Below the pieces are notes generated by a model, which worked only from the letters and a program-made list of their open reading frames with translations, ran no database searches and was not told the DNA's origin. From the IMG/VR virus record IMGVR_UViG_3300042090_001530, positions 128,001 through 192,000 of that record: a DNA stretch of 64,000 nt; one strand, written 5' to 3'. Position numbers and translations under genes: made by a program. Shown in pieces: positions 2,867 through 55,552 of the stretch. Origin of the DNA: a virus. Taxonomy: Duplodnaviria; Caudoviricetes. Each line of letters starts with the position of its first letter. Position 1 is the stretch's first letter.

Positions 2867-4063
2867 TTACCTTCGCAGGCGCGCTGGTTCCTGCTTCACG
2901 GACCGGCCAACACCGAGGTCTCCACAGGCTGTCACGGCAAGCCCTGCCGCGAGTATGTTCTTCGCCGCGTTCACGTCGGCGTGGTCTCGGTGGCCGCAAG
3001 CCGTGCACGCGAACACCGCTTGGCTCTCACGGCTGTTCGCGTCCACCCGCTTGCACCGATGGCACGTCTGGGACGTGTACGCGGCGGGGACTTTCTTCAC
3101 CCCCGACCCCGTGTAGCGGGCTGCGGAGCGCAGTGCTGTCTCGAACTGGTACCAGCCCTTGTCCAAGATGGCGCGGTTCAGGCCGGACTTCTGCGCGACG
3201 TTGCGGCCCGGGGCGTCGAGCGTGCCGGCCGCGGTCTTGGTCATGTTCCGGGTCTTGAGATCCTCGAGGACGATCAGGGCGTGGTCGCGGGTCAACCCGT
3301 GTGCGGTCTGGGCGCAGAAGTCCGCCCTACGTTCGACCGGCGCCCGGTGCGCCTTCGCGAGCAGGGCCGCGGTCTTCTTCCGGTTGCTCGAGCCGCGCTT
3401 GGACCGGGCGAGTTTCTGCTGCAGCCGACGCCGGTGCTCGAGCTCGCCGGGGGTGGCGAACACCTGGTCGTGCAGGTCGCCGTCCGATGTGGCGGCAGCG
3501 ACCACGACGCCGCGGTCCACACCTACCGCAGTGTCCGGCAGGGCGTGGGTTTCGGCCGGGATCTCGCCGTCTTCGACGAGGAAACTGACGTACCAGTGCC
3601 CGGTCTTGAACGACACCGTCGCGTTGCGGATCACGCCGCCGAGCGGCCGGGACCAGCGGAATTTCACCCAGCCGAACTTTGGAAGCTTGACGCGGGCATG
3701 ACTCCGATTGAGTTGCTCCACCGCCATCCACTTGCCTTCGGAAAGGCGAAACGACGGCTTCCACCGTGTCTTGGAGCGCCAGTGCACGGCGAAGGTGCCG
3801 TGCTTGCGGCACGCCTTGTCCAGGTCCATCAGGGTCTGCTGGAGAACGCAGGACGGCGCCTCGGCGAGCCACGGGAACTCGCGCTTCGCCTCGGCGAGCT
3901 CGGCGGCCTGCTGCTCGTAGTTGATCCACGCGCCGCGCTGCCGGTAGATCCGCCGCTGCTCCAGCGCGGTGTTCCACACGTCCCGGCACGCCGCGCCCAC
4001 CTGCTCCGCATAGGCGACCTGAGCGGGCGTCAACTCCAACCGGTACCGGCGCGCGGTGAGCAT
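2867..4063 (-). CDS. tnpB: TnpB RNA-guided endonuclease, catalytically intact (398 aa)
   Basis: MLTARRYRLEL N-terminus; RuvC-I GVDRG, RuvC-II VLEDL, Zn finger CHRC/CTAC, RuvC-III HADVNAA. Confidence 0.95.
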   Translation of the reverse strand: MLTARRYRLELTPAQVAYAEQVGAACRDVWNTALEQRRIYRQRGAWINYEQQAAELAEAKREFPWLAEAPSCVLQQTLMDLDKACRKHGTFAVHWRSKTRWKPSFRLSEGKWMAVEQLNRSHARVKLPKFGWVKFRWSRPLGGVIRNATVSFKTGHWYVSFLVEDGEIPAETHALPDTAVGVDRGVVVAAATSDGDLHDQVFATPGELEHRRRLQQKLARSKRGSSNRKKTAALLAKAHRAPVERRADFCAQTAHGLTRDHALIVLEDLKTRNMTKTAAGTLDAPGRNVAQKSGLNRAILDKGWYQFETALRSAARYTGSGVKKVPAAYTSQTCHRCKRVDANSRESQAVFACTACGHRDHADVNAAKNILAAGLAVTACGDLGVGRSVKQEPARLRR

Positions 4064-49561: not shown

Positions 49562-49604
49562 GCAGGGCGTCGTGGTCGCTACAGGCGGGTGCGGCGCCCC
49601 GCTT
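49562..49604. terminator. Bidirectional hairpin terminator, copy B
   Basis: GGGCGTCG...CGGCGCCCC; abuts the cas2 stop. Confidence 0.55.
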
Positions 49605-49912
49605 CACCGTCCCGGCCCGTCCGGTTCCGCCGGGTTGAGCGCGATCAGTGCGAGGCCGTCCAGGTCGACGGGAGCGCGTCGACTCTCGCCGGCCGTCTGG
49701 ATCGCGAAGCGCTGTTCGGTGTCGGCGGCGTGGACGAGTACGGCACTGCCGTCGCCGACCGACGCGGCGATCACTGCCCACAGTTCGTCGCGGACCTTCG
49801 CGGACAGCGTCCCCACGTACAGGCCGGGCGTAGGTTCGAGCATCCAACGGCTCAGGGCGCCGCGGACGTGCGGCGCGACTGCGGTCGCGCTGATGACGGT
49901 CAGGTTGCTCAC
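49604..49912 (-). CDS. cas2: Type I-E Cas2
   Basis: LTVISATAVAPHVRGALSRWMLEPTPGLYVGTLSAKVRDELW; GTGA overlap with the cas1 stop. Confidence 0.93.
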   Translation of the reverse strand: MSNLTVISATAVAPHVRGALSRWMLEPTPGLYVGTLSAKVRDELWAVIAASVGDGSAVLVHAADTEQRFAIQTAGESRRAPVDLDGLALIALNPAEPDGPGR

Positions 49913-50910
49913 GGCCCGTCCTGCCCTCGGCCGTGGTTGGTGCCGCTCGGTACCGAACCGGCTTCCGGGTCCCAGAGTTCGAATGCGTTGGCCAGTTCGA
50001 CATTGCCTGCGGGTTCGATCCCCGGTTCGAACAGGCGCTGGATGTCGCGGACGATGTTCGGCATGAGCCGGAACAGGGTCAGTCCGCGCCGGAACGCGCG
50101 CCTGGCGTCGCCTTCGGGGTCTTCGGATGCGTGCAGGGTGAACGCGAGCGGGATGGTGAGTTCGGCCTTGTACAGGTCGGCGATGTCGTACACGAACGCG
50201 TGGCTGGTGCCGGCGTGTACGAATCCGAGGCCGGGGGAGCAGCCGAGCGCGGTGATCGCGGCGTGGACGATGCCGTACAGGCACTGGTTGGCTGCGGTCA
50301 GGGCGGCGTTGACGGGGTCTTGGCTTTCCCAGTCTTCGGGGTTGTAGGAGCGGCGGAACGCGTGCAGGCCGTGCTGTTTGGCGAGGCGCCTGTAGAGGGA
50401 TTTCATCTGCCAGCCTTCCAGCCCGCGGAGCGTGCCCAGTTTGACGCCGTCGGGCAGTTGCCCTTCCGCAGTGGGGAACCGGTGGGCGTACATGCGTTTG
50501 GCGACCGTGAGCCGCTTGGCGGGGTCGGCCCAGGCGGCTGCCTGCTTTTCGAGCCAGCGGCTCGACCGGCTGGACGGGGTGATCGCGGCGTAACAGCGGA
50601 CGGTGCCCCAGCCGGTGAACACGATGGTGGTGCCGTGTCTGGCGAGGGTGGCGACTGCGGGGTTGGTGATGGAGGTTCCGGGGCCGAGGAGCAGGCAGCT
50701 GATGGCGGCGGTGGGGATGCGGAGGCGGCGTGTCGGGGCGCCGACGGCGGGGAATGCGAGGACGCCTGTGTCGTCTTGGGTGATGCGCATGAGGTCGAGG
50801 AACAGGAACGAGAGGCTGTCGCCGACGCGTGGGAGCATGGCTGCGGTGGGTGCGGCGATGCGGCGTCGGGCTTGCTGGGTGTTGGGTTGGGGTTGGTTCT
50901 CTGGGTGCAT
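49909..50910 (-). CDS. cas1: Type I-E Cas1, catalytic residues intact
   Basis: LPRVGDSLSFLFLD, LLLGPGTSIT, LRGLEG (E), LGFVH (H), FVYDIADLYK (D); likely ATG 50910. Confidence 0.95.
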   Translation of the reverse strand: MHPENQPQPNTQQARRRIAAPTAAMLPRVGDSLSFLFLDLMRITQDDTGVLAFPAVGAPTRRLRIPTAAISCLLLGPGTSITNPAVATLARHGTTIVFTGWGTVRCYAAITPSSRSSRWLEKQAAAWADPAKRLTVAKRMYAHRFPTAEGQLPDGVKLGTLRGLEGWQMKSLYRRLAKQHGLHAFRRSYNPEDWESQDPVNAALTAANQCLYGIVHAAITALGCSPGLGFVHAGTSHAFVYDIADLYKAELTIPLAFTLHASEDPEGDARRAFRRGLTLFRLMPNIVRDIQRLFEPGIEPAGNVELANAFELWDPEAGSVPSGTNHGRGQDGP

Positions 50911-51003
50911 CCGTTGTTGATAGCGCGGTTTCGCAGAGGGCTGAATGCTTGTCGCACGAACGAGTGACGTGTCGATGTTCGGCCGGTCCGGATGAGGATC
51001 TCC

Positions 51004-51460
51004 CGATCTTCCCGTGCGCTCGCGGGCCAGACCCTGGATGAAGAGGCGTCCGCGCGACCCCGACAGATCTTCCCGTGCGCTCGCGGGCCAGACCCGACGG
51101 CTCGTCATCGTCCGGCAGTGCCCTTAGATCTTCCCGTGCGCTCGCGGGCCAGACCGGAACTCGCGGCGGCCGGAGTGGTGGACGGCAGATCTTCCCGTGC
51201 GCTCGCGGGCCAGACGCGTCATCCGGCAGATAAACTCGGCCCCGTTGAGATCTTCCCGTGCGCTCGCGGGCCAGACCTGATCGGGGTGCGATCAGTCCTG
51301 CGCATTGCTAGATCTTCCCGTGCGCTCGCGGGCCAGACTGCCGCCGTCGCCGCGGAGACCGCTGCGGAGAAGATCTTCCCGTGCGCTCGCGGGCCAGACT
51401 CTCGGTCACCTGGTCGAGGTAGCCTTCGGCGAGATCTTCCCGTGCGCTCGCGGGCCAGAC
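51004..51460 (-). CRISPR. CRISPR array: 8 repeats, 7 spacers (six of 32 nt, one of 33 nt), type I-E-like 61-nt period
   Basis: Repeat on minus strand GTCTGGCCCGCGAGCGCACGGGAAGATCT; forward-strand starts 51004, 51065, 51126, 51187, 51248, 51310, 51371, 51432. The divergent copy is at 51004 (trailer) and an AT-richer leader-like segment is at 51461-51495. Confidence 0.97.
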
Positions 51461-51484
51461 AGTTCGTGGCCAGCGCAAACACTC

Positions 51485-51660
51485 TTGAGTTTTACTCACG
51501 AGTCAAGGGAAGCCGGGGGATCACTCCCCCGAGATGACCCGCCCCGTCGCCGAGACTGGCCTTCCTGCTTCGACAGCGGGGTCGAGAGCCGCCGGTCACC
51601 CGACGGACTTTGCCCACCTCCACAGGCGTTTAGACTCTCCCCGATATCCGAGGCGAGCGG
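51485..51660 (-). ncRNA. omegaRNA-like scaffold overlapping the 3' end of the dead TnpB
   Basis: GGGGAGAGTCTAAACGCCTGTGGAGG...GAAGCAGGAA...GGGGGAGTGATCCCCC hairpin, ending near TCAA (51485-51488), as in TnpB 3' ends. Confidence 0.6.
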
Positions 51661-53283
51661 TACCGCATGGTGCAGGATATTGCGCGCAGCATTGACCTCG
51701 CGGTCAAGCTTCATACCGCACTTGATGTTCCCGCACCGGAAAACCACCTGCGTAAGCGGGATGCTTGGGTCTCGCCATCCACACTTGCAACAGGTCTGAC
51801 TCGACGGCAGGTCCCCGGCCGCAGCCCGGAACCGCGTACCCCACTGCGCCGCCTTGTACTCCAACTGGCGCCGCAACTCGGCAGGCGCCGTGTCCAGGAT
51901 CGCCCGGTTGAAGCCGGCCTTCACCTTCACGTCGCTGCCGGGCGCCTCGACGGTGCCCTTCGCGGACCCGGTCATCTGCCGGACATTCAGGTCGCGGACA
52001 GCGATCTCCGGATAGTTGATCGCTATGCTCGCGGAGATCTGGTTCAGGGTGCCGCGCCGCGCCTCCGCAGTCCGATGATGCACGCGGCCGAGCCGCCTGA
52101 CCGCCTTGGCACGGTTCGCCGACTGCGCCTGACCGCGCACGAACGGCTTACGCGCCACAGCCTGCGACGCCTTCACCAAAGCCCGCTTGTGCCTCTTGCC
52201 GTACCGAGGATTCTCATACGCAGTCTCGTCCGACAGGGCGACCAGGGTACGAACACCCCACTCGACGCCGACGGCCGGGCGCATCCGCTGCCGTTCCTTG
52301 GAGACCTTCTGCCGGGCCCGGGAGACCTCCTCGCGGTGCCGCATCGCCTCCGGGGACAGTTCGCACAGCACCGACGCGTACCAGCGGGAGCCGCCCCGGG
52401 AGATCGTCACCGACTTGACCACCGCGTGGCCCCGGTCGATCAGCCGCGCGAGGGGCTTGCAGGACTCGAACAGCCGGACCGAACCGATCCGCGGCACGTT
52501 CAGCCGGCGGTGTCCGTCGGGCCGGATCGACGGGTTGTGCACATCGTGGAACAGGGTGAACGAGTCGGTCGAGCGGCCCTTCTTCTTAAACCGGGGCCTG
52601 CCCATCGCCCGGCCGACCCTGGCCCCGGTGCGCGACGCCATCCAGTTCTGCATCGCCGCCTGGGCGCGGTCGAAGCCGTTGGTGAAGCAGTACACGGAGA
52701 CTTCGGGATGCCACGGGGAGCCGCCGTCTGCGGCGTCCTGGTCGCGGATTTCGCGCCACATGGTGGTGCAGTCCATCGCGGACGGGATCGCGTCGCCGCG
52801 CTCGAATCGGGCCTTCTTGAACTGCAGCACCTCGCGGCGCACGGCAGCGAGTCGCTCCTTGATCTCCAGCAGGTCGGGGCGCGTCTTGTCCTTGACTGCG
52901 GCCATCAGGGCTTTGCGCTCGTCGTCGAGCCGTTTGGTGTCGGCGGCCAACTCGGCGGCCTCGGCTTTGAGGATCGGCCGGGCCTGCTTGTCCCACTGCT
53001 TGATCCGCTCGCCGCGCACCTGGGCCGTCCACGCAGCGGTGGACTTCTCGTCCAGGCCGTCGGGCGGCTGCGGCATCGGCCCGGCGATCCGGGTGATGAC
53101 CTCGTCGCGGCGCGCCTCCCAGGCGAGTTGGGCTTGGGACATCCATGCGATGCCGCGGTTGGTGGCCCACCGGGTGGCGCCAGCATGCCGGGCGAAGTCG
53201 GCGAGTTGGGCTTGGGTTGGGTCGAGGGCGAACCGATAGGCGCGCAGAACTGGCGCGGGCGCTTCGGTTTCAGCGGTGGCCAT
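51496..53283 (-). CDS. tnpB: CRISPR-adjacent TnpB/Cas12-like protein, RuvC-inactivated (595 aa)
   Basis: LRAYRFALDPT HTH, RPRFKKKG, Zn finger CCKC/CGNIKC; RuvC-I GVEWG (D>E341), RuvC-II AVRDL (E>R430), RuvC-III DREVNAA (D>E529). Confidence 0.9.
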   Translation of the reverse strand: MATAETEAPAPVLRAYRFALDPTQAQLADFARHAGATRWATNRGIAWMSQAQLAWEARRDEVITRIAGPMPQPPDGLDEKSTAAWTAQVRGERIKQWDKQARPILKAEAAELAADTKRLDDERKALMAAVKDKTRPDLLEIKERLAAVRREVLQFKKARFERGDAIPSAMDCTTMWREIRDQDAADGGSPWHPEVSVYCFTNGFDRAQAAMQNWMASRTGARVGRAMGRPRFKKKGRSTDSFTLFHDVHNPSIRPDGHRRLNVPRIGSVRLFESCKPLARLIDRGHAVVKSVTISRGGSRWYASVLCELSPEAMRHREEVSRARQKVSKERQRMRPAVGVEWGVRTLVALSDETAYENPRYGKRHKRALVKASQAVARKPFVRGQAQSANRAKAVRRLGRVHHRTAEARRGTLNQISASIAINYPEIAVRDLNVRQMTGSAKGTVEAPGSDVKVKAGFNRAILDTAPAELRRQLEYKAAQWGTRFRAAAGDLPSSQTCCKCGWRDPSIPLTQVVFRCGNIKCGMKLDREVNAARNILHHAVPLASDIGESLNACGGGQSPSGDRRLSTPLSKQEGQSRRRGGSSRGSDPPASLDS

Positions 53284-53340
53284 GTTCTACTCCTTCCCGG
53301 TTCGGCCCTGCAGGTGCGTCAGATTTTAGCGGGTACGTCC
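53284..53340 (-). promoter_or_regulatory. Putative promoter and RBS of the tnpB-array-cas operon
   Basis: -10-like TAAAAT (~53322-53327) and AGGAG RBS 6 nt before the ATG; -35 not clear. Confidence 0.45.
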
Positions 53341-55552
53341 GACACTGGCGCGGCAGTCTCGCGAGCCCCTCGTGGCGGGTGGGCGCCGTCACCACATCCG
53401 GCAAGCGCGCCAGAGCCCGACCGCCACAGCCTCCATGCGGTGCTCGATCAGCCATGCGGCGGTCGCGTCCACACCCCGCGTGGCGCGCAGCCGGACCCGG
53501 GTCCTCCACGGCAGTGGCGGGTGGCGTTTCCACTGGCCGTTCGGCTGCCGATAGAGGTAGGGCGCGGGCTGTCGGTCAGTCACCGTCGCGCACCCCATCC
53601 TTGCCGTTGAATCGCAGCGATTCGCGGATCTGGCGCTCGGGGAGCGGTTTGCCGCGTCCGTCCGTCCATGGCCGGCCCACGGGTCGATCGGCGTGCGTGT
53701 AGGCCCAGACTCTCGCATGGTCGCCCAGGTACCAGAGGGGTGTGCCGCGGCCGTCGGTGCGCACGGTGAAGCCTTCGCCGGCTTCGTAGGTGAACGATGC
53801 ACCGGACGGTTCGGAAGCGTGGCTGGGGTCGATCAGGTCGGCGACAACTCTGAGGCATCTACCCGCGAACGCGAGGATCACGAGGCGCCCCACTCGGCCG
53901 CTGTCGCGACTTGGCCGGTCACCATCCTGGATGCCTTCCCATGTAGACGTCGTACCCCACGGCGCCCTCGACGGCCACGATCCCGGCCGCCGCTTCCTGT
54001 CCGGCCTGAACGTACCCGACGTAGTTCGGGTCGCTGATCGCGGCGGCCGTGGGCGGCACGCCGAACACGCTGCCGAAGCCGAGGTCGTCTTCGGGTTCCG
54101 TAGCGGCGGTCGCGTACTTGGACCGCGGCGAGCGGGGACGGTCCGGGTGTGGTGCCGCGCGGGTCACACGGTTCTCTCGGTCGCCCTTGTGCATCCGTTC
54201 CCGAAACTCGTGCAGGGCGATGCCGCCTTCGGGCCAGGTTGCGCCGGTCGCGAGCCAACCGTCGAGCTGCGCGAGCATGATGGACTGCGGGGTGGGTTCG
54301 CGGTCGAGCATTGGGGCTCCAGCGTTCCACCAGCGAACGCCCTCGTTGACCCGGTCGTGGGTCATCGGGAACTTGTCGGCGGTCAGGCCGAGTTCGGCGC
54401 GGTACGCCTCGAAAACGGCGAGCCGTTCCTTGCCGGGCCATTCGCCGGGGTAGGCGGGGAGCAGGCGGTCGGGGATGTCCATGTCACCCATTCTCGCCGC
54501 CGCCTGCCGCGATCCGTTCGATCTCGAGCCGGTCACGCTCCAGCCGTTCCTCAAGTTGCTCCAGCGTGGACGGGGCGAACGTGTCGCAGCCGCACCGGCC
54601 GTAGCGCGTGCCGCCGGGCAACTCGCGGGCGACGCTGACCGCGCACGGACCGCGCTCATGGGAGGCGTAGTGGTGGCGGCAGTTCTCGCACCCGACCGGC
54701 AGGAACATCGCGCAGTCGGCGCACACGAACCCGCCGACGGTGAACCGGACGTACGGGGCCTTCGGCTCGCCGCAGGTGCACTCGCAGCATGAGCGACAGC
54801 GCTCGCAGAGTTCCGCTTCGCCGCCGGGATGCCACCAGTTGCTTCCGCCGTGGCAGTCGCGGCAATCCGGGTGCCCGGTCCTGTGGGCCGGCGGCCCGCA
54901 GGCAGCGCTGGCCGTGTCGAGTGGCGGCGGGGCGTTGCGCTGCGAGTACGGCACGATCGGCAGGTCGGGGCGCATCGCGGACAGTACCGCGTCGATCGGC
55001 CCGTTGGTGAACCCGAGTTGATCGGTGGTGATCGCGGTGAACGTGGCTCCGCAGCCGGGTTGCCCGTGGCTGTCGCCGTGCCCGGAGATCGTCTCATGTG
55101 CGGTTTGTCCGCGGACGAGGGTGCCGCGGCCGCAGTGCGAGCACTTCGATGTATAGCTACTGACGATTATGGTCGCGGTCGCGCCTGGCGTGGACGGCTC
55201 GTCGCGGTATGCGTTGTACGAAGTCTCGCTCACTGCTCGCCACCGCCCACGCCGGCCCGCCCGGCTAGGAACTGCTCGACCCACTGCGCGTTCGCCTCGC
55301 GCGAGTCGTCATACTCGATCCACCGGTCGCTGGCACTGATCTCGCTGGCCGTGATGACGCCTTCCCGGAAGCACTCGTCCCATTCGTCGCTCAGCCGGTC
55401 CCTCACGCGCGGGTCGGTCGCCCGGTCCCGCTCGGCCATGATCAGAGGGCAGTTGCGGAAGAACGTGCCGTCCGACTGCTTGCGATACCAGGTACGGGGC
55501 GCGGGTCCGCTTTCGGTCCGGCGGTGGCGGGTTCGACCCCAGCGGATGCCGG

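Follow-up and report, generated by a model that had tools for sequence, protein, structure and literature searches.

Closest described systems

Among the type V CRISPR effectors, Cas12m (type V-M) and Cas12c are known as binding-only proteins. The systems closest to the phage locus presented here are those of Cas12n, formerly V-U4 or C2c9 and now named type V-N (PMC11641405), with AcCas12n and RdCas12n as described representatives (Chen et al. 2023 Mol Cell; Fu et al. 2025, PMC12216341). The tracrRNA of Cas12n overlaps the effector open reading frame (ORF) (PMC12216341, PMC11641405), and the sgRNA of RdCas12n is composed of five stems and a pseudoknot that links the stem 1 region to the last repeat bases, joining positions -4 to -2 with -170 to -168 (PMC12216341). 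The phage effector comes from the same family, and the locus shares with Cas12n a tracrRNA that overlaps the 3' end of the ORF, the design of five stems plus a pseudoknot, the pairing of the repeat 3' end at two sites, a disordered, RNA-encoding protein tail, and an array placed directly downstream with 29-nt repeats resembling those of type I-E, as in the Rothia, Kocuria, Kitasatospora, and Streptomyces loci (L029 to L050). It differs from Cas12n in the RuvC triad of its clade, which is an invariant E-R-E instead of D-E-D, in being carried by large phages, and in an insert of ∼90 amino acids in the N-terminal part of the proteins of the close subclade. The close subclade also has Cas1e-Cas2e next to its array; when we checked two cellular loci, cas1 was elsewhere or was not found.

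The resemblance to TnpB-omegaRNA systems (OMEGA; IS605/IS607/IS1341) lies in the protein fold family and in an RNA whose sequence takes in the 3' end of the gene and continues past it, and the 5' scaffold motifs (TAAACGCC..GGAG) are found in standalone TnpB loci too. In contrast to these systems, the phage locus has no single RNA with a flank-derived guide, because CRISPR repeats supply the guide-proximal strand, and the scaffold is followed by a 43-nt leader and an array. Moreover, synteny is conserved within related contigs, most of which are probably of phage origin, with no sign of mobility; no TnpA gene adjoins the effector in the window, and we identified neither a transposase nor transposon ends at the locus. 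TldR proteins (Wiegand et al., PMC10705468) are likewise TnpB derived, with changed RuvC residues and a scaffold at the 3' end of the gene, but they use one fixed guide and come with no array or Cas1-Cas2, whereas the phage locus has an eight-repeat array with unique spacers and Cas1e-Cas2e. TranC systems (Jin et al. 2025 Cell), which we compared by way of secondary descriptions (PMC13565253, bioRxiv 2026.03.27.714800), are similar in concept, with an omegaRNA functionally split into tracrRNA and crRNA for TnpB-sized proteins beside arrays, some of them in phages; the TranC loci that the preprint describes have 32- to 38-nt repeats and no adaptation genes (bioRxiv 2026.03.27.714800). With Cas12m and Cas12c, the effector probably shares binding without cleavage through a noncanonical RuvC site, by which targets would be silenced. 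Cas12m itself belongs to a separate branch, given that the profile of our clade (A2) reached an E value of only 0.002 against UnCas12m4a, and a table in PMC11641405 lists it as needing no tracrRNA, whereas the phage locus has a predicted one.

Organization of the phage locus

The DNA that we analyzed, referred to here as the window, is a stretch of 64,000 nt and forms part of a 202-kb virus record with an estimated completeness of 98%. On the minus strand, the effector gene (51496-53283) is followed by a 43-nt leader, eight 29-nt repeats (51004-51460), cas1e, and cas2e, with a gap of 35 nt between the effector stop codon and repeat 1. The features are as follows.

51496..53283, minus strand: effector gene, 595 amino acids, Cas12n (V-U4)-like and of the TnpB family, with RuvC residues E341/R430/E529 for D/E/D
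51504..51652, minus strand: tracrRNA-like scaffold, overlapping the codons of the C-terminal tail, as delimited by consensus fold and RNA-library contigs
51653-51650 (CCUC) with 51642-51639 (GGGG), minus strand: stem 1 of the scaffold, enclosing the GAU loop
51646..51648, minus strand: pseudoknot triplet GAU in the stem 1 loop, pairing with repeat nt 26 to 28 (AUC)
51531-51514, minus strand: 7-bp hairpin CGGGGGA-GTGA-TCCCCCG with a GNRA tetraloop (GUGA), described in an earlier note as a GGGGGAG/CCCCC hairpin
51504..51512, minus strand: anti-repeat CUUCCCUUG, pairing with repeat nt 17 to 25, with a 6-nt core CUUCCC at 51512-51507
51498-51496, minus strand: stop codon of the effector, within the 43-nt leader
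51461..51503, minus strand: leader, 43 nt, with the motif AACTCAAGAGTG (51491-51480, includes TCAA) and the junction motif GCGCTGGCCACGAACT
51004..51460, minus strand: CRISPR array of eight 29-nt repeats and seven unique spacers of 32 to 33 nt, period 61 to 62
51432-51460, minus strand: repeat 1, of which nt 17 to 25 (51444-51436) and nt 26 to 28 (51435-51433) contact the scaffold
49909..50910, minus strand: cas1e (TIGR03638 Cas1e, 1.5e-96, above the curated cutoff; Pfam Cas_Cas1)
49604..49912, minus strand: cas2e (TIGR01873 Cas2e, 1.8e-21; PADLOC Cas2e, 2e-45)

The locus thereby carries the hallmark of type I-E adaptation, with Cas1e and Cas2e beside 29-nt repeats and 32-nt spacers at a period of 61. 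For the stretch between effector and array (51461 to 51660, minus strand), we consider it likely, with good confidence, that it comprises the tracrRNA of a phage-borne type V-N (Cas12n)-like locus and a short array leader. The earlier note on this DNA had suggested here a snapshot of an omegaRNA in the course of splitting. The layout is instead the established type V-N/Cas12n design (PMC12216341, PMC11641405), and since a tracrRNA inside the Cas12n ORF had already been published, that note had rediscovered the defining RNA layout of Cas12n; this settles the question it raised and lowers the surprise.

The effector is Cas12n-like and has an altered RuvC triad

The effector protein matched the Pfam models OrfB_IS605 and TNB as well as guided_TnpB of NCBIfam. 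Its best PADLOC model was Cas12u4 (1.4e-143, covering profile positions 17 to 479 of 488), and the top solved structure was RdCas12n (9J09), with E values of 1e-60 for the effector and 2e-88 for the clade profile. On these profile matches, the effector belongs to the Cas12n/V-U4 protein family. In the alignment to 9J09, the catalytic residues D287/E386/D484 of RdCas12n align to E341/R430/E529, showing that the effector has an E-R-E combination where Cas12n has its canonical D-E-D RuvC triad. This combination is invariant in 25 clade members that are 50 to 95% identical, whereas the nearest relatives outside the clade retain D-E-D; these include P0026, two Kitasatospora proteins, and P0031 (505 amino acids, Actinomadura craniellae), which is probably AcCas12n itself. 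A quick tree, left unrooted, showed the E-R-E proteins as one side of a fully supported branch, next to array-linked active relatives and apart from 35 standalone TnpBs that formed a 99%-supported clade.

By analogy to Cas12m, the E-R-E effector may bind PAM-flanked targets without cutting them. Given that two of the replacements are conservative D-to-E swaps and that D431 is kept beside R430, the loss of cleavage is something that we infer. Residues ∼243 to 250 of P0001 (window ∼52535 to 52558, minus strand) read FHDV(H/K)N in the E-R-E clade, in place of HHDVK, the motif used for an AAN PAM by AcCas12n-like proteins (PMC12216341), which hints that an A-rich PAM may be retained in this clade. 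In a deeper E-R-E branch (P0020, P0022, P0023, and P0025; 604 to 741 amino acids), an Ig-like He_PIG domain (PF05345) is fused to the N terminus of the effector; the genes for these fused proteins are located at L019/L022 2622-4938, L118 3001-5211, and L119 3001-5163.

A conserved tracrRNA-like scaffold overlaps the end of the effector gene

The motifs named in the earlier note were found on the minus strand at the places it had given, namely, AACGCCTGTGGAG at 51630-51618, GAAGCAGGAA at 51571-51562, and the hairpin at 51531-51514, and the first two pair with one another (CCUG with CAGG). To compare them across relatives, we fetched the DNA around effector homologs and aligned the stretch from scaffold to repeat 1 for 15 loci, whose effectors are 40 to 95% identical or less. 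The same set of motifs recurs in all 15, in the same order and ahead of an array. RNAalifold predicted 31 scaffold pairs from this alignment, of which 20 show compensatory changes. The GNRA-capped hairpin is paired in 100% of the cells, with changes on both sides in five of its seven pairs, and its loop is always of the GNRA type among the 15 loci (GTGA, GCGA, GTAA, or GCAA). Taken together, four helices (stem 1, the pseudoknot, the GNRA hairpin, and the anti-repeat) are paired in 91% of the cells, compared to 46 to 60% in a slid control, where the 3' partner was shifted by 1 to 3 columns, and none of 500 shuffles attained their observed covariation score.

In three loci (L025, L029, and L032), part or all of this scaffold is situated outside the ORF, downstream of the stop codon, which indicates that the constraint is on the RNA rather than the peptide. 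Covariance modeling across homologs, proposed in the earlier note as a check, thus speaks for a structured RNA both in the scaffold and in its two repeat contacts, which covary as well. A tracrRNA-like partner of the repeats, one of the possibilities that the note had raised, is therefore the role indicated by the two covarying contact sites. We also considered a decaying omegaRNA as the identity of the stretch and rejected it in favor of the tracrRNA of a type V-N-like CRISPR locus.

An Rfam scan of positions 50500 to 54000 gave no match at E values up to 1, and we know of no Rfam family for the Cas12n tracrRNA. No promoter-like site was found in a sigma-70 scan, and the sole terminator-like site, at 52917-52930, falls inside the gene body, well away from the scaffold.

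The scaffold contacts the repeats at two covarying sites

The pairing of CTTCCC (51512-51507) with GGGAAG of the repeat, which the earlier note had called weak, covaries across the 15 loci. The anti-repeat helix as a whole is paired in 81.5% of the cells, with eight of nine pairs changing on both sides, and its six core pairs are formed in 86 of 90 cells; no shuffle attained these values. In slid controls, the anti-repeat helix and the GNRA hairpin counted together were paired in 42 to 58% of the cells. The covariants include CTTCCACTG:CAGTGGAAG (L017), CTTCT:AGAAG (L023), CTACCCC:GGGGTAG (L027), and TCATCCCC:GGGGGTGA (Rothia). In the window itself, the core duplex is only 6 bp long, and pairs 7 to 9 include one C-U mismatch.

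A second contact, missed in the note, joins GAT (51648-51646) with ATC at repeat nt 26 to 28 in a pseudoknot. It is paired in 93% of the cells, two of its three pairs change on both sides, and its covariants are GAT:ATC, GAC:GTC, GGC:GCC, and GGG:CCC. Both contacts match those of the published RdCas12n guide RNA.

Cofolding of scaffold and repeat, another check named in the note, gave minimum free energy (MFE) and centroid structures of 51400-51652 in which the anti-repeat pairs with repeat 1. With this fold in cis, the first unit of the array could work as a natural single guide. The leader segment GUUUGCG..GGCCA (51461-51484) is complementary to the 5' half of repeat 1 (UGGCC, CGCGAGC; 51446-51457, minus strand), pairs with repeat 1 in the MFE and centroid folds, and resembles a partial inverted copy of the repeat.

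A short leader separates the scaffold from the array

The TCAA pointed out in the earlier note is present at 51488-51485 (minus strand), and 24 nt (51484-51461) lie between it and repeat 1. The note had called it right-end-like and had seen no room for a normal independent leader in so short a distance. We found it to be part of a leader motif, AACTCAAnAGTG, that is conserved ahead of repeat 1 in E-R-E loci, with nothing showing a transposon end at this place. A 43-nt leader is in fact present, and its motifs, which include AACTCAA and GGCCACGAACT, are conserved in dead and, in part, in active relatives. A junction motif, GCGC(T/A)GGTC..GAAG, ends before the G of the first repeat in E-R-E loci and in active Cas12n-like loci. 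In the array of L017, degenerate repeats are found at the cas1 end, so that the end on the scaffold side is the leader end. From these motifs, we read the 43-nt segment as a putative integration leader for Cas1e-Cas2e. A Rothia cas1 locus that we inspected for comparison with a host type I-E leader contained no array.

Arrays and adaptation genes in related loci

Wherever a related locus has an intact array and its sequence reaches far enough downstream, the array starts 35 to 207 nt after the stop codon and has a period of 61. L119 has only eroded remnants, with scattered repeat 3' ends (GGACGGTC), and no clear array was seen in L021, which is 41% identical and outside the clade. Several related contigs break at the array, a usual place for assemblies to end. 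Cas1 and Cas2e come after the array in L015, L023, and the ERZ1758402 contig, while only Cas1 was called in L017. Active Cas12n-like loci from Rothia, Kocuria, Kitasatospora, and a Streptomyces metagenome-assembled genome (MAG) show the same layout; cas1 is elsewhere in the genome in Rothia and Kitasatospora and was not found in the Streptomyces MAG. Our first scan of IMG/VR proteins and a scan with the scaffold DNA pattern returned no further loci, and alignment-based scans returned only one viral and three metagenome loci.

Every spacer occurs only once, and even the window and L015, with effectors 94% identical, have none in common, which suggests that acquisition is ongoing. No targets were found for the spacers of the window, L023, and L019 arrays among 50,697 phage records, nor for any of the spacers in the phage's own genome and the fetched loci. 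Against 401 genomes (the family of G002), the window array gave no target and only short, GC-rich, chance-like matches. The internal repeat hairpin typical of type I-E is weak, with 2 to 5 of 6 pairs.

Several further features of these arrays were observed. Within the window array (51004-51460, minus strand), all seven repeats with a spacer after them have T as their 29th base, and the trailer repeat has G there; this base varies between arrays (T, C, or G; also in L015, L017, and L023), while nt 26 to 28 covary with the scaffold; by analogy to type I-E of E. coli, this base may be PAM derived. Some arrays show jumps of the period by 300 to 400 nt that suggest insertions (L019 4982-6230, L025 4838-5500, and L119 5163-7590). 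In the deeper branches L026 and L118, a serine recombinase occupies the cas1-cas2 position; it is of the large type and follows the array without Cas1-Cas2 (L026 4615-7310; L118 6892-8211). A Tn3-family transposase follows the array in L027 (5531-7824), the locus of the active relative P0026, and DUF7873 is encoded near the locus on a related phage contig (L118 1-17).

Contigs from RNA libraries span scaffold and array

Part of the 2.4-kb stretch that we queried is represented by contigs in two wetland metatranscriptome runs, which belong to two studies. The first contig (376 nt, 100% identical, k-mer depth 101) covers 51297-51652, i.e., the scaffold, the leader, and repeats 1 to 3 with spacers, and continues into Illumina adapter letters beyond 51652. 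Since the adapter starts with AG, like the genome at 51651-51652, the end of the fragment can be placed within 51650-51652. The second contig, from the other study, is 215 nt long and covers 51433-51643, with the scaffold, the leader, and repeat 1. At the scaffold end, the contigs of the two studies end no more than 9 nt apart, close to where stem 1 is predicted to begin, while a DNA run extends past both contig ends. We infer that the 5' end near 51652 arises by processing.

Cotranscription of the scaffold with the array, as suggested in the earlier note, is supported by these bridging contigs, which are assembled sequences that give no strand, exact ends, or length of single molecules and could include DNA carryover. 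No RNA-library contig was found on 51710-53300 or 50900-51296, a gap in coverage that proves neither low expression of the ORF nor the absence of DNA carryover.

Proposed mechanism and alternative explanations

According to the model that we favor, the scaffold (∼51652 to 51504) folds into stems 1 to 4, of which the second is long and the fourth has the GNRA cap, and transcription would pass through the scaffold and the leader into the array. Each crRNA would keep the 3' part of the repeat as a handle, which would dock on the scaffold through repeat nt 17 to 25, with the anti-repeat CUUCCCUUG (51512-51504), and through repeat nt 26 to 28 (AUC), with GAU of the stem 1 loop in a pseudoknot. Through the two contacts, an omegaRNA-like fold would regain its guide-proximal end, as it does in the guide RNA of RdCas12n. 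The scaffold RNA would bind the effector, which in turn may bind targets without cutting, as Cas12m does, while the 43-nt leader would serve the adjacent Cas1e-Cas2e integrase.

A more speculative extension, to which we assign a rather low probability, is that scaffold, leader, repeat 1, and spacer 1 form one molecule and act as a natural sgRNA, by which the newest spacer would be favored without a separate tracrRNA while older ones use the scaffold in trans. The leader would then be a linker, across which the anti-repeat and the pseudoknot triplet pair in cis with repeat 1. If so, the locus would be a living intermediate between omegaRNA and split tracrRNA/crRNA, in which one DNA segment is at once coding sequence, guide scaffold, and integration leader.

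The same RNA arrangement could also belong to an ordinary cleaving Cas12n, if the E-R-E site, perhaps with D431, still allowed the effector to cut DNA or process RNA. Wu and colleagues are said to have found in 2022 that Cas12m keeps RNA processing with a noncanonical site, which would count in favor of this reading. The D-to-E changes keep a carboxylate at two of the three positions, D431 lies beside R430, and active rearranged RuvC sites have been described for TnpB and Cas12 (PMC10691335). However, the E-to-R change at RuvC-II swaps a metal ligand for a cation, and the three positions have changed as a set that does not vary among 25 sequences, with D-E-D kept in the nearest active relatives, so that we regard a nuclease as unlikely, if still worth keeping in mind. 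Alternatively, the array might be serviced only by a type I-E Cascade of the host, as a phage miniarray with its own Cas1e-Cas2e, leaving the scaffold as a vestige of a TnpB-like gene. The 29-nt repeats, the 32-nt spacers, and Cas1e with Cas2e are indeed type I-E hallmarks, and no match to Cas6e or Cas7e was found in the phage record, in a search of limited sensitivity whose control matched only in Thermus. Yet two sites in the 3' parts of the repeats covary with the scaffold, the repeat hairpin of the Cas6e type is poorly preserved, and the same type of repeat occurs in active Cas12n-like loci, including that of a Rothia relative of the structurally solved RdCas12n, which makes an exclusive use by Cascade very improbable. 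Since the repeats are I-E-like and the weak search found no Cas6e or Cas7e in the phage, use of the array by both the effector and a host Cascade is conceivable; the poorly kept Cas6e hairpin, next to covarying scaffold-contact bases, indicates that the primary user is the Cas12n-like effector.

Two further readings deny the scaffold its role as a tracrRNA. In one, which the earlier note had offered as its own alternative, the RNA is an unsplit omegaRNA or TldR-like guide RNA, with the fixed 20 nt after TCAA (51484-51465) as the guide. This segment comes after the scaffold and shows moderate conservation between close relatives, and nuclease-dead TnpB relatives with fixed guides do exist (TldR, PMC10705468). 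Nevertheless, GGGAAG and the ATC handle are absent upstream of the segment and present only in the repeats, its 3' half forms part of the leader-repeat junction motif common to active Cas12n-like arrays, and it has no match with up to 4 mismatches elsewhere in the phage; we consider a fixed guide extremely unlikely. In the other, the conservation of 51496-51660 reflects only selection on the C-terminal tail of the protein, with no functional RNA. Although the reading frame continues through this stretch and the clade shares a conserved tail peptide, the stems carry compensatory base changes, the scaffold is conserved even where the ORF stops early or lies upstream (L025, L029, and L032), RNA-library contigs fall on exactly this stretch, and published work describes the Cas12n tail as disordered (PMC12216341) and that of AcCas12n as dispensable (PMC12721324). 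The probability that we see for selection on the tail alone is close to negligible.

Significance of the E-R-E clade and further observations

The RNA layout itself is already known from Cas12n. New is a nuclease-altered (E-R-E) Cas12n-like clade, located largely on long phage-like contigs, whose closest members have their own Cas1e-Cas2e. We found no description of this clade in the literature, where a V-U or TranC clade number for it may already exist. Its effector looks like a natural "dCas12n," combined in the closest members with an adaptation module that appears to be working. If the effector binds without cutting, the locus would be an adaptive, phage-carried CRISPR interference device with an effector of only ∼600 amino acids; it would then be relevant to conflicts between phages or between phage and host, and of use as a compact programmable DNA binder. 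A single-guide RNA can be designed directly from the two covarying RNA contacts, and the overlapping ORF, tracrRNA, and leader illustrate how compact a module of this kind can be.

Apart from the effector, the phage encodes four further TnpB homologs that are 33 to 38% identical to it, at G000:C1 11454-12689, 90703-91434, and 101556-102467 and at window positions 2912-3535. The homolog at G000:C1 101556-102467 is accompanied by a typical omegaRNA 5' motif, GGGTAAACGCCTGCGGAG, near G000 102440.
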